This document shows, piece by piece, positions 8,850 to 56,495 of a DNA stretch of 64,000 nt. A model generated the notes under the pieces. It saw only the letters and a list, made by a program, of their open reading frames with translations, did no database searches and had not been told where the DNA came from. Origin of the DNA: Camelus ferus (Eukaryota); contig NC_045696.1 of assembly GCF_009834535.1 (NCBI RefSeq), positions 61,320,001 through 61,384,000 of the forward strand, in the 5' to 3' direction. The position numbers and the translations under genes were made by a program. Within the stretch, counting starts at the first letter, position 1; each line of letters opens with the position of its first letter.

Positions 8850-9713
8850 AGATGCTCAACATCGCTAATTATTAGAGAATTGCAAATCAAAACTGCAATG
8901 AGGTACCACCCCACACCAGTCAGAATGGCCATCATTCAAAAGTCTACAAATAACAAATGTTGGAGCGGGTGTGGAGAGAAGGGAACCCTCGTACACTGTT
9001 GGTGGGAATGTAATTTGGTGCAGCCACTATGGAAAACAGTACGGAGGTTCCTTAAAAAACTAAAAATAGACTTATCATATGATCCAGCAATCCCACTTCT
9101 GGGCATATATCTGAAGGGAACTCCAATTCAAAAAGATACATGTACCTCAATGTTCATAGCAGAACTATTTACAATAGCCAAGACATGGAAGCAACCTAAA
9201 TGTCCATTGACAGATGATTGGATAAAGAAGCTGTGGTATACACATACAATGGAATACCACTCAGCCATAAAAAAAGAATGAAATAATGCCATTTGCAGCA
9301 ACATGGATGGACATAGAGATTATCGTACTAAGTGAAGTAAGTCAGAAAAAGAAAGACAAATTTCATATGGTATTACTTATATATGGCATCTAAAATATGA
9401 CACAAATGTACTTACTTACAAAATAGAAATGGATTGACAGACATAGAAAACAAACTTACGGTTACTAAAGAGGAAAGGGAATGGGGGAGGGATAAATAGG
9501 AGTTTGGGATAGGAGATTCAAACCACTATATATACAATAGATAAACAATAAGGTCCTACTGTATAGCACAGTGAATTATACTCAATATTCTGTAATAAAC
9601 TACAATGGAAAAGAATAAAAAAATAATATGCATATATATATATGTACAAGTGAATCACTTTGCTGTACACCAGAAACTAACACAATATTGTAAATCAACT
9701 ATAGTTCAATTTT
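8850..9713 (+). mobile_element. 5'-truncated L1 (ORF2 C-terminus + 3' UTR)
   Basis: ORF 8736..9281 carries ORF2p C-terminal motifs ([29 protein letters not shown]). Confidence 0.93.
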
Positions 9714-9733
9714 AAAAATGACATTTTTTTTTG

Positions 9734-10597
9734 GCCATTATCAAAAAAAGACAGGAGGGGAGGCTGTAGCTCACTGGTCGAGTGCATGCTTAACACACAC
9801 AAGGTCCTGGGTTCAATCCCCAGTACCTCCATTCAAATAAATAAGCAAATAAATGAACCTAATTACTTTCTCCAAAACAAAAACAAACAAACAAAATTAA
9901 AAAAATAAAAAAACAGAGAGTAACATTAACCAGGATGTAGAGAAATTGGAACCCTTGTGCACTGTTGGTGGGAAACGGTATGGTAGGTCCTTAAAAAATT
10001 AAAAACAGAATTACCATATGATTCAGCAATTGCACTTCTGGGTATATACCCAAAAGAACTGAAAGAAGGATCTTGAAGAGATATTTGTAAATCCATGTTC
10101 ATAGAGGCAATATTCATAATAGCCAAAAGGTGGAAGCAACCCAAGTGTCCACTGACAGACAAATGTAAAAACAAAATGTGGTCTATACACACAACAGAAT
10201 ATTATTCAGCCTTACAAAGGAAGGAAATTCTGACACAGGCTATGACATAGATGAACCATAAGGTCATCATGCTAAGTGAAATGAGCCAGCCACATGGAAA
10301 CAAAGACTATGTGTTCACTTACATGAGGGACCTGGAGTAGTAAGATTCATAGAGACAGAGAGCAGAATGGTGGTTGCCAGGGGTGGGTGTGGAGAGCTTT
10401 TGTTCAATGGGTAGAGTCTTAGTTTTGCAAGATGAAAAGAGTTCTTAAAAAAAAAAAGATGGAAAAAGTTCAGGAGTTTGGTCACATGACAATGTCAATG
10501 TACTTAACACTACAGTTTAAAATGGCTAACTTAAAAATGGTTAAGGTGCTAAATTTTATGTTATATGTATTTTCCCATTATTAAAAATACTTACCAC
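9734..10597 (+). mobile_element. Older 5'-truncated L1 (L1MA/MB-like 3' end), interrupted by a SINE and, in its tail, by the next element
   Basis: Degenerate ORF2 end and the typical 3' UTR terminus (aaaatggttaagg..aaattttatgttatatgtatttt). Confidence 0.85.
9757..9905 (+). mobile_element. tRNA-derived SINE inserted in an L1
   Basis: Same head and body as the other copies; flanks aaaaaaagacag / aaaaaaacag. Confidence 0.88.
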
Positions 10598-13500
10598 AGA
10601 GGTGCCAAAGTGGCAGAGTAGGACCCACAGCTCACCCTCTCCCACAAATACACCAAGAATTACACGTACAAACCCACTGAATCACACAGAGCAACTGAAC
10701 TCTGGCAGTGTCTCTCACTTTGAAATACAGGAGGATTCTCACAAAATCCAGTAAGAGAAAAAAAGAAAAAGAAAATTGGTGTGGGAGCAGTCCTGCAGGG
10801 AGGGAGTGGCATAGGAAGAAAGGCACCCTCATGCTGGGACACCGCCTCTCCAGCTGAGTGGTCAGCAGGGACGAAAGCAGAGCTTCTGAGGCTCCGAAGA
10901 AAAAGTGGCAGCCACTTGGGAGACAGAACCAAGAGAAACTGGTATGGAGGGTCCCTGCAGTCCTCAGCCTTAGATGTGAGTCAGCAGGGACACTGCCGGG
11001 ACTGGCTGCTGGAGATCTGTGAGGAGCCCGGGCAGAGGGCTGGGGCCCACTGCACAGAGGCAGCCTCAGGGGACTGGAGGGCAGTGTGAGCTCTGGCTGG
11101 GGTGTGTGCAGAACAGAACAGCCTGGGACCCCCATACAAAAGCACCACTGCTGGTGACGTTGAGGGGAGGGGTGCAATGCAGCTGTGCCATGGCGGATTC
11201 CTCTGCTTGCCTCCACGGTTGGTGTGTTCTCGAGAGAAGAGAGGTGGGGCTTGGTCATAGCCATTGCTGCTATGGGCTGGGCTGAAAGCTGAATCCATAC
11301 CCAGCGGCCTAGCAACTTCACAGGTGGGACTGAGTTTTGTTTACAGCCCCAGGCAGAGAGGGTGGATCTGCTCTCTCTGCACCCTTGTAGACCCACGCCT
11401 CTGGCAGTGAGTGGAGTTCTGGCACATGGCAGGGGCGAGTACTAGTATTTATAACAGGCCGGCATACCACACCCTGTGTGGAGGTGGGGCTGGGGTCTGC
11501 ACTGACCCTGTGGTGCACCACAGGTTCAGGTGTGGGACTGCATACTTGCTACGGTGGGTCCTAGCACCTGACATTGGCAGATCTGCGCTGGTGGTTCCTG
11601 GAGTTCAGAACCAGAGCAGGTGGCAGACATTCCAGCAGCTAAGGCAGGGACAAAGGCAGCGTCAACAAAGAGTACTTTCTAAGCCCACATAACAAGTGAC
11701 AGACAACAACACAGAGGGCACCTCCCAGGGGACATCTGCAGAGGTACACTCAGCGACTCTTCTTCCCAGCTGTAGTGCTCCGACCCTGCCTACCATACAC
11801 CACAGCTCAGAAACGGGTCTAGAAGCCTCTATTCCAGCAACAGGGAAGCAGACCTGGCCCCTGTCAAGGCTGTGACAACCACAGAACAAAAAAGGAGGCC
11901 CTGCTCAACAACAACAATCAGGGCAGGCTCTGATCCCCACAACACCAACCACACCCCCAATCAAAAGGATAATAGCCAACACACATGGAAGATGTGGCAA
12001 CCATCCATACTAAGAACAGCCCTCACAACAAAGCTATTAAATGAACACAGTCTGCACAGGAACACTCCCACTTTAAATAAAAACAAACAAACAAAAAATA
12101 GCCCTTCAAGACCACAGTAGATGGAGAAATGTAAGTAAAATGAAGAAGCAGAGGAACCACTCCCAATTTAAAGAACAAAACAAAAACAGAAGTCCCCTGA
12201 AAGAATGAACAATGAGATAGACCTCGACAGTCTACTGGATCATGACTTCAAAAAGGGGGTGATAAAAGCACTGACAGAAATAAGAGAGTCTATGAATAGA
12301 GACAGAGAATACTATGGAAAGGAAATAGAAACTATAAAGAGGAGCCAATTAAAAACAAAACTCAATGGCTGAGATAAGAGCCAAGCTAAAGGCAGTCAAA
12401 AGCAGACCAGATAATGCAGAGGAATGAATAAGTGACTTAGAAGACAGGATAACAGATATCACCCAATCAGAACAGCAGACAGAAAAGCAAGTAAAAAACA
12501 ATGAAAGCAATATAAGGAATCTGAGATAACATAAAGTGTGCCAGTCTATGCATAATAGGAGTCCCAGAAGGAGAAGAAAGAGAAAAGGGGATTGAAAAGC
12601 TATTTGAAGAAATCATGACTGAAAACTTTCTAAACCTAAAGAAGGAAACAGATATCCAAGTACAGGAAGCACAGAAGGTCCCCAACAAGAAGAACCCAAA
12701 TAGACCCACACCAAGACATATTATAATTAAGATGGTCAAAATTAAAGACAAAGAAATGATTCTAAAGGCAAGAGAAAAACGAAGAGTTAGTTATAAGGGA
12801 ACCCCAATAAGGCTTTCAGCTGATTTCTCTACACAAACACTGCTGGCCAGAAAGAAGTGGCAAGATACTTTGAAAGTCCTCAATGAGAAAAGGCTGCAAC
12901 CTAGGATACTCTATCTGGCAAGACTATCCTTTAGAGTAGGAGAAAGAATTTCACAGACAAGCAAAAACTGAAAGAATTCAGTGATACTAAACCTATGCTA
13001 AAAGAAATGTTGAAAGGTCTACTCTAAATAGAAAAGAAGCAGGAAGCTACAGAAACAAGACAATCTTAATTGGAAATGCAATAACTACAATGAGTTGCAA
13101 GAGAATAAACATGAAGATGTAAAAAAAAAAAAGACATCAAAATCATAAAAGGTGGGAGATGGGAGCAAGAAAATAGATCTTTTTCTCTCTTCTTTTATTT
13201 TTTTCTCCATTCTTTTTAGGATGTGACTGTCAGTTTAAAGCAAATGACTATCAGTTTAAAGCAAATAGATACAGTAAGGGGTTAACATACTTGAAAAACG
13301 GGGTACACAACCAGAAAAATTGTGCTGTACACCAGAAATTGACACAACATTGTAAACTGACTATAACTCAATAAAAATTAAAAAAAAAAAACGGTACACA
13401 AATCAAAAGCATAGAACAGAGTGACAGAAACCAAGCTAGTACCAAAGAAAATTATCAAACCAGAAAAATACTGTATGATATCACTTATATGTGAAATCTA

Positions 13501-13828
13501 AAAAAAAAAGACAAATGAACTTATTTACAAAACAGAAATAGACTCAGACATAGAAAACAAACTTATAGTTACCAGAGGGGGAAGTGGGTAGGAAGGAATA
13601 AACTGGGAGTTCAAGATTTGCAGATACTAACTTCTATATATAAAACAGATAAACAACAAGTTCATACTGTATAGCACAGGGAACTATATTCAATATCTTG
13701 TAGTAACTTATGGTGAAAAAGAATATGAAAATGAACATACATATGTTCATGTATGACTGAAGCATTATGCTGTACACCAGAAATTGACACAACATTGTAA
13801 ACTGACTATACTTCAATAAAAATATATA
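10598..13828 (+). mobile_element. ORF1-only L1 (half-L1/HAL1-like): 5' UTR, decayed ORF1 (about 12140-13027), spacer, L1 3' end
   Basis: ORF 12615..12971 is L1 ORF1p (PRHIIIKM, IRLSADFS, QPRILYLARLSF). The 3' end follows at about 13465 with no EN or RT sequence. TSD ttaaaaa(t/a)actt(a/g)ccac at 10581 and 13829. Confidence 0.85.
13311..13386 (+). mobile_element. Very short L1 3' terminus inserted in the ORF1-only element
   Basis: Near copy of 13765-13820 plus an A tail; TSD aaaaacgg(gg)tacacaa. Confidence 0.85.
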
Positions 13829-16063
13829 TTAAAAAAACTTGCCACTATTAAAAATAAAAATTTTAATGACACTTTGTTGTTTTTCTGCATATAAAAGAAA
13901 TATTTATTTAAAATCATACAGTTATAGAAAAGTCTAAAGAGGTAAAGATGTAAATAACATATCTCATATATTACATATAAAAACTCATAAAGAAATAAAA
14001 ATTACCAATAACCCCACTACCCAGAGACAGCTGCCTCTAATAACATGATATATTTATCTTGAACATTGACATGTATGCACAGCTATCTGTCCATCTGTAG
14101 TTTATATCATTCAATAGATACAATTACATATGCTACTTTTTCACTTAACGTATTATAAGTATTTCCAAAATCTCCTATAATGTGATTTTTAATAGCTTCC
14201 TGTTATCTGTTCATAGAGACAAAAAATTTATTCAATTAGTCTTCTTTTTCTAACTATTTTGGTTATTTATAAAGTTTTTCAATATTTTAAACAGTACTAA
14301 GATAAACATCTCTATGTATATACTGTTACTCATCTTTCTGAGCATTTCAGTAGACTCATTTCCCAGAAGTGAAGGTATTGAGGCAAAGACTGCGTATCTT
14401 GAGGCCGATGGGGGCCACACGCTGATGGAGGCCTTCTCTGCCGAGCCTGTTCTTGTTCACAGGGCACAGCTGGCCAGGTGCTCGGTGCTCTGTCCCTGCC
14501 TGTGTTCAGAGGGCCCCAGACTTTCTCTCCTTTGACTTCTGCTAGATTTGACTCCTGCAGGTGCTGAGGAACTAAATGCTCTGGAATTTAAGCAACGTAA
14601 AACAGGGCCCCCGTGTCTGACAGCTTACAAAAAGTCTAGCATCTACATTGCTGGCAGGAACTCAGAGATGGTCCCATCCAACAGTTATTTCATGGAAGAA
14701 AATGAGGCATGCAGAGGGGAGTGATATTCCTTTTTCTTGATGGATGAACTGAGCTAAAACTGAACTTAGGCCATCACCCCAGGCCATCACCCCAGGGAGG
14801 GCTGGGGTCACAGCAGAGAGTAAATTCTCCAGCTCCCTGGACTAAGTGCCAGGTTCCAGAACAGCTGCAGGGTCACTCAGGGCCATCATTTGGCAGCCTC
14901 AGTGACAACCGCCTCATGACCACATATTGGCTCTCAAGAGGAGCCAGGAAAACTCTCCAGGACACTGGCTCAGACCCTCTTCCTACAGTAAAACCTGGTC
15001 TTAAGATTACCAGCACAGGCAGGCATGTGGTGGATGGTCTGCACTTGGCCAAACAGAGGCAGAGAAGACCCAGACTCGCCCTGTGCAAGAAATGGAGTGG
15101 GGACGGGGCAGGGAAGGGACCCTGCCTTCACCGAGCACCTGCTGTGTGTCATGCTCTGTGCTGGGCACTCTACCGTCTCTCCCTCAGTCCTCAATTCTAC
15201 CCTGGGATGTAGGCATTAGCCCCCTTTTGCAGATTAGGCTCAGAAAAGTTAAAGAACTTGGCCGAAGGTCAAACCGATAGCAAATGCAGTCAGGATTCCA
15301 ACGCAGGGTGCCTGCCTACGGCTGCAGTGTTCTGAGCACTCACTGCTCATGAAGACTCTGAACACTCGTCAGCATACAGAATAAAAAAACAGATACACAA
15401 GCATACACGCATCTGGAAACTGATTCCATCACAGTAAGAGGACAAATGAGAGGGAAGTTCAGTCAAGTATGTCAAGAGGTGGCACTGGTCCCTCTAGCTC
15501 CAAGGCTCCGAGTCCTGGAATGCTGCTAGGAGCAGGAGGACCAATCTGAGGGCCTGTGTCCAAAGACCCTCATGATGACCTCGAGAAAGAGGCAGCAGCT
15601 GTGGGGAAGGAAAGGGCATTGTGCGGGGGCCAGGGACTGGATGCCACTCCCGGCTGAGCCAGGAGGGCTGTGTGAGCCTCAGTGAGACACTCCACCTCTC
15701 TGAACTTAGCTCTTCACATATAAAATGGGAAAACTCCCCTCATCCTCCTCCAGCCATCACCCCATTTCACTCCTCCCCACAACAGCAAAACTCCTTCAGA
15801 ATGTTGTCTATCCTTGCCTCCAAATCTTTTTTCTAATTCTTTTTAAAATTTTTCTCTTTTTATGAGTTACTTCTTAGATAAAAATAACATATTATATGTT
15901 ATAAAAGAAATTAAAACAAACCGATGCACCTCCCAGTCAGCTTTAGACAAAGAGAATATGAAGGCATCTGAAGTCCCCAGTCACATCCCTCTCCCCTCCA
16001 CCCAAGTACCCACTATTCCAAAGGTGGCATCTATCATTCCTTTCCTTTTCACTAAACTTGGTG

Positions 16064-56363: not shown

Positions 56364-56495
56364 TTTTTTTAACATTTTTTATTGATTTATAATCATTTTA
56401 CAATGTTGTGTCAAATTCCAGTGTAGAGCACAATTTTTCAGTTATACATGAACATATATATATTCATTGTCACGTTTTTTTCTCTGTGAGCTACC
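56364..56495 (-). mobile_element. Short young L1 3' terminus
   Basis: Reverse complement resembles 13690-13820; perfect TSD aaccaggatgt at 56353 and 56496. Confidence 0.85.

Follow-up and report, generated by a model that had tools for sequence, protein, structure and literature searches.

A dead, ORF1-only L1 derivative of ~3.2 kb (3134 nt once a nested stub is subtracted) lies between target-site duplications at 10598..13828 of the window, i.e., the whole 64-kb stretch of DNA analyzed here, whose setting is mammalian, with several tRNA-Ala-derived SINE copies and many L1 pieces. We lean towards the view that this unit is one copy of a candidate camelid half-L1 (HAL1-type) family, whose junction would then recur at other loci. 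The unit has an L1 5' end, a polyadenylated 3' end and a target-site duplication, together with a complete L1-derived ORF1 that covers the 300 residues of a relative, P0005, despite 4 frameshifts and a stop. It has no endonuclease (EN) or reverse transcriptase (RT), its ORF2 being reduced to ~12 terminal codons. The ORF1-only, bipartite HAL1 anatomy proposed in a first-pass annotation of this DNA is therefore borne out, with breakpoints that are unusually well placed for a HAL1.

Anatomy of the ORF1-only unit

The unit and its flanks consist of the following features, all on the plus strand:

10581..10597, +, left target-site duplication, 15/17 identical to 13829-13845
10598..12139, +, complete L1 5' end and 5' UTR, 1542 nt, CpG-depleted, aligned to related full L1s
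12131..13027, +, full-length dead ORF1 (coiled coil, RRM, C-terminal domain), by P0005 alignment and Pfam
13028..13310, +, inter-ORF spacer, part one, 67-69% identity to the spacers of L001, L002 and L029-L034
13311..13391, +, nested 5'-truncated L1 3' stub, 81 nt, with A tail and its own ~15-17-nt duplication; the spacer alignment picks up again behind it
13392..13460, +, inter-ORF spacer, part two, register set by the flanking alignment
13461..13501, +, junction and last ~12 ORF2 codons to the stop, with older L1s matching at their ORF2 ends from 13474 and 13481
13502..13828, +, L1 3' UTR with AATAAA at 13815 and A-rich tail, similarity to an older L1 end
13829..13845, +, right target-site duplication, pairing with 10581-10597

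The first bases of the unit align with the 5' ends of related full-length L1s, and its 30-nt 5' motif shows 90% identity to L029, L030, L032 and L033. The 5' UTR (10598-12139) has a GC content of 0.48-0.59 and a CpG observed/expected ratio of just 0.13-0.21. Both the L1-type 5' end and the ~1.5 kb of GC-rich 5' UTR assigned in the first-pass annotation were thus recovered. An antisense frame without stops (10632-11441, minus strand, 269 codons) spans the GC-rich 5' UTR and is probably a by-product of its composition.

Across the full length of P0005, 214 of 294 aligned residues of ORF1 are identical (80/128 in the first part and 134/166 in the second), and Pfam matches were obtained to Transposase_22 (E=1e-22) and Tnp_22_dsRBD (E=6e-7). 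The reading frame is interrupted by 4 frameshifts near 12183, 12355, 12524 and 12949 and by an in-frame stop at 12425. The description of a complete but frameshifted ORF1 at 12140-13027 therefore stands, with its start moved to ~12131, three codons upstream, where the homology begins. In a tree of 22 RRM segments, ORF1 pairs as sister with P0005 (support 91/79, unstarred) on an end branch of 0.16 changes per site. The nearest named match to ORF1 (78% over 78 aa) is a fragment of a Camelus dromedarius record, which suggests a camelid-like host; the ORF1 N-terminus as a query returned no protein at E 0.001 (11 candidates). A dromedary gene model annotated as cylicin-1, P0119 (XP_064339253.1), includes a 78-aa L1 ORF1 piece in its terminal sequence, where the annotation was probably extended into an L1.

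The spacer behind ORF1 aligns with those of the full L1s L001, L002 and L029-L034, all from metagenome contigs, with scores of 139-202 vs shuffle maxima of 48-60. Its second part alone (13392-13460, 69 nt) scores 25-37 vs shuffle maxima of 39-45, i.e., not above shuffles. The left break would lie 55-85 nt upstream of the ORF2 start of related L1s, depending on the register. The stub that separates the two parts (13311-13391) appears to be a later insertion into the unit. Accordingly, the ~0.4 kb given for the spacer in the first-pass annotation agrees with the total of 433 nt, of which only ~336 nt are true spacer and ~97 nt belong to the nested stub with its duplication. Related full-L1 spacers measure 390-511 nt, which fits the 390-529 nt stated for pig L1s in an excerpt of PMC6501411, and L001 clusters with a pig protein in the RRM tree. 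A near-tandem duplication of 21 nt lies within the spacer of the unit at 13226-13266, and the long spacer of the pig-like full L1 L001 contains an open frame of 79 codons (2156-2395).

Beyond the spacer, similarity to an ORF2 end is seen by 13474 and the ORF2 stop is found at 13499-13501, consistent with the jump to the last ORF2 codons that had been placed near 13465. Over 358 nt, the 3' part of the unit has 76% identity to an older L1 end located at 9366-9719. Two ORF2 protein and three ORF2 DNA queries matched other L1 pieces of the window and gave only E values above 6 inside the unit, in agreement with the absence of EN and RT claimed earlier. Since ORF2 is taken as ~3800 nt, the approximate length given for pig L1 in an excerpt of PMC6501411, ~3.8 kb would be missing upstream of the ORF2 remnant.

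The direct repeats that flank the unit were first described as a 17-bp pair at 10581 and 13829. They are present at these positions and match at 15 of 17 nt (17/19 if extended) rather than perfectly. Besides the right copy, no further match to the left repeat at up to 2 mismatches was found on either strand of the window. L1 endonuclease prefers TT/AAAA sites. The left duplication is preceded by TT and starts with a run of A; it begins at such a TT/AAAA site, is 15 nt long when counted from the nick (10583), and sits within an older L1, in an A-rich 3' tail that resembles other old L1 ends in the window. Together, both ends of the unit and the 15/17 duplication at an endonuclease-type site indicate insertion via an L1 RNA. 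Around the target site, the host L1 tail contains a short near-tandem repeat (10572-10589 vs 13839-13856, 16/18 identical), so that the empty site had two similar units ~20 nt apart.

Known half-L1s and the search for further copies

HAL1s (half-L1s), non-autonomous derivatives of L1, were reportedly described by Smit (1999) and by Bao and Jurka (2010). Excerpts of PMC5753468, PMC5786205 and PMC2241872 define the HAL1 as a half-L1 and non-autonomous L1 derivative, with several independent origins in mammals stated in the first of these and mobilization by the ORF2p of full L1s proposed in the other two (PMC5786205, PMC2241872). HAL1 entries are given for marmoset and guinea pig in part of PMC3183009 and for bats in part of PMC3342881; lineage-specific HAL1 families are already known from pig, rat, bats, guinea pig and marmoset. 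The unit resembles such elements in its L1 5' end, ORF1 as the only ORF, L1-type 3' end with tail, target-site duplication and net length of ~3.1 kb. However, the name HAL1 covers multi-copy families, whereas for the unit one decayed copy is known.

The pig family HAL1_SSc, likewise from an even-toed ungulate, has a Repbase consensus of 3016 nt with a 5' UTR of 944 nt and an ORF1 of 906 nt, and it retains the 5' UTR, ORF1 and ~280 nt of spacer ahead of the break (excerpt of the PMC6501411 supplement). It thus shares with the unit a 5' UTR, a whole ORF1, most of the spacer, a break within that spacer and an L1-type 3' end. In contrast, its 944-nt 5' UTR is of another type, and its ORF1 starts like P0008, a protein that falls in a different clade from that of the unit. 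Furthermore, HAL1_SSc carries ~800 nt of unrelated AT-rich filler followed by ~130 nt of L1 3' end, whereas in the unit the spacer joins the ORF2 tail cleanly and the 3' UTR is whole. The unit therefore differs from HAL1_SSc in 5' UTR type, ORF1 lineage and filler, as compared by eye, with the RRM tree separating the ORF1 lineages, and would have originated independently of it.

Rat RNHAL1 is described, in an excerpt of PMC2241872, as an L1 with ORF2 deleted, i.e., as an ORF2-deletion product of its own lineage's L1, as is envisaged for the unit; ~7500 HAL1 copies are reported there for rat. That family is 98% identical to an active L1 across its 5' 2600 nt, whereas the camel unit is old and dead. 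Among camelid L1s, the families L1-1_Vpa, L1-2_Vpa and L1-3_Vpa, named in parts of the PMC6726744 supplement and of PMC10362595, are the probable source of the unit's 3' UTR and ORF1, judged by the camelid-like host and the dromedary ORF1 piece. Their annotated coordinates reach 5.2-6.2 kb, which makes these elements longer than the unit. In the available part of the PMC6726744 supplement, none of the 6 HAL1 entries in the Repbase annotation of the camelid casein cluster bears a camelid name, and the term HAL1 does not occur in the main texts of PMC8605555, PMC6675863, PMC10362595 and PMC5203782. No camelid HAL1 emerged from literature searches aimed at one, and such a family may be listed in Repbase, Dfam, Bao and Jurka 2010 or the supplements of PMC8605555.

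Searches for sister copies with DNA patterns taken from the junction and from either end of the unit gave no true match in genome, viral and metagenome contigs, collections that seem to be without camelid DNA. Two 25-nt pattern matches in Nitrospira contigs were rejected as chance, and P0005 as a query confirmed no locus in the same collections. A search by ORF1 alignment yielded 41 + 10 = 51 loci, the best with 79% ORF1 DNA identity to the unit. The 3' UTR of the unit and the SINE have no match in any of these 51 non-camelid loci, and matches to the 5' UTR of the unit never exceed 30 nt; the collections therefore appear to hold no camelid DNA. As a consequence, the missing sister copy speaks neither for nor against a family.

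The same loci are informative about the usual arrangement of L1s. The end of ORF1 is visible in 39 of 51, and at least 600 nt beyond it in 19, which include one locus several times from different samples; in 18 of these 19 the start of the endonuclease comes next. The arrangement in the unit is thus not the normal one. Only one ORF1 locus, L037, lacks ORF2 downstream; it runs into unrelated, bacterial-looking DNA and was discarded as a chimeric contig. Pieces of mammalian L1 ORF1 were also seen in bacterial genome and MAG records (L037; L042-L051), where they represent contamination or misassembly. The 24 sequencing runs listed, from 13 studies and under 8 organism labels, each contain 58-86% of 43 words sampled from 13395-13830. 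Since 84% of the 31-mers of this interval lie wholly 3' of the junction, these matches show the 3' part in many samples and say nothing on the join.

The first-pass annotation had also regarded the 3' end of the unit as shared with the stubs at 13311 and 56364. This did not hold up: the former is 91% identical to the end of the unit over 75 nt and the latter 82% over 121 nt, and both carry common variants absent from the unit. By these variants, the stubs appear to be related to the unit and to belong to a different subfamily. They were rejected as evidence for a family, being too short to include the junction and differing in their variants, with the stub at 13311 being a later insertion inside the unit. 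Because they end short of the junction, a half-L1 source and a full-L1 source are not distinguishable from them. The stub at 56364-56484 (minus strand), a 5'-truncated L1 remnant of ~120 nt, is clearly flanked by a duplication, and its 5' junction apparently includes 15-20 nt that do not derive from L1.

Family copy or single deletion

The family reading that we favor would begin with a camelid L1 in which ~3.8 kb between the inter-ORF spacer end and the final ORF2 codons was lost. Still equipped with its 5' promoter, ORF1 and an L1 3' end, the shortened element would have been transcribed, with its ORF1p coating its own RNA, and would have borrowed the ORF2p of full L1s in trans for target-primed reverse transcription. 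One copy would then have inserted at a TT/AAAA site within an older L1 tail, decayed and later received an L1 stub in its spacer. The TT/AAAA site, the duplication and the tail are the three features that would point to such trans-mobilization by L1 ORF2p. This reading is favored because the breaks keep the entire ORF1 and remove ORF2 except for ~12 codons, because pig HAL1_SSc likewise breaks in the spacer, and because HAL1s have several independent origins in mammals. If breakpoints were uniform, 0.4-0.5% of deletions that remove 1 kb or more would spare ORF1 and end no more than 100 nt from the ORF2 stop, a figure whose target was defined post hoc, after the locus had been seen. The end of the spacer and the ORF2 tail are both A-rich, and such flanks could raise the likelihood of these breakpoints above uniform. 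The family reading is weakened because the ~800 nt of junction filler of HAL1_SSc is absent from the unit, because the 6 HAL1 entries of the casein cluster include no camelid-named one, and because a second 5'-complete L1 in the window likewise carries an internal deletion, one that runs through ORF1.

This second L1 (~18490-16070, minus strand) is 2.4 kb long, older, and the sole other 5'-complete one recognized in the window. The first half of its ORF1 (17511-17012) runs into late ORF2 (17011-16430), with the join at a short stretch common to ORF1 and ORF2 in related L1s; the element has no spacer, no EN or RT and nothing more of ORF1, and no clear target-site duplication was found around ~18490-16070. 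Without the capacity to encode ORF1p, it looks like a plain deletion. Both 5'-complete L1s of the window (2/2) are thus devoid of EN and RT, and the second one indicates that such one-off deletions occur in this window and are not rare. The same 12-nt A-rich word is found at 10583-10594 and, on the minus strand, immediately upstream of 18490, a few bases ahead of both L1 5' ends; it partly reflects endonuclease preference, and the remainder may be chance.

That the unit likewise goes back to a one-off deletion, during or after insertion, is quite possible, if short of probable. Had the deletion followed insertion, a full-length L1 with this duplication would have lost ~3.8 kb by microhomology-mediated repair and become ORF1-only by chance. 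The neighboring L1, 2 kb away, whose ORF1-destroying deletion joins two similar short stretches, argues in this direction, as does the age of the unit, which can loosely be called old from 2/17 duplication mismatches (95% interval 1.5-36%), the nested insertion, the RRM end branch of 0.16 and CpG loss in the 5' UTR (observed/expected at most 0.21). The lack of any sister copy would also fit, in collections that apparently hold no camelid DNA. However, both breaks lie where a HAL1 needs them, as in ~0.5% of random large deletions by the post hoc measure, and we regard a deletion after insertion as unlikely, albeit a reading of some weight. The loss may also have occurred during insertion, if RT, having copied the 3' end of a full L1 RNA, skipped ahead on this template to the spacer and then completed the element to its 5' end, in which case the copy arrived short and never spread. 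This would yield the identical anatomy with an intact duplication, and the A-rich sequence on either side offers possible annealing points. Nevertheless, the placement of the breaks (~0.5% of random large deletions, post hoc) counts against this course as well, and its expected anatomy is the same as that of a later deletion, from which only orthologs would distinguish it; we consider it decidedly unlikely.

Finally, a spliced L1 RNA could have been retrotransposed in the manner of a SpIRE, the missing part being an intron, and spliced, internally deleted L1 insertions are described for human in an excerpt of PMC5860796. A splice donor and acceptor would then bound the deletion. However, related spacers (6 of 6, from 4 distinct loci) contain no GT near the left break, in the stretch from 130 to 17 nt ahead of ORF2; these spacers are non-camelid and only ~68% identical to the unit, and splicing appears highly improbable. 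The weight given here to the family, to either deletion and to splicing is a matter of judgment and was not calculated.

Significance for half-L1 origins

Whether the family is an undescribed camelid half-L1, derived by a clean spacer-to-ORF2-tail deletion independent of HAL1_SSc, present at many loci and with its ORF1 under purifying selection, is to our minds a nearly balanced proposition that falls slightly on the doubtful side. At best, the unit adds one more half-L1 to the families known in other mammals, and as a single deletion it would be an ordinary broken L1; under either reading, no host function is suggested.

If the family is real, half-L1s would have originated independently once more, in a lineage for which repeat curation is thin. 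Together with the pig case, half-L1s would then seem to arise repeatedly by breaks late in a long spacer. Selection on ORF1 across the copies would be measurable against the parent L1. According to a proposal quoted in part of PMC2241872, ORF1p bound in cis improves the RNA as a substrate for RT. A clean-deletion family, if true, would be the simplest natural case for why ORF1 stays while ORF2 goes.
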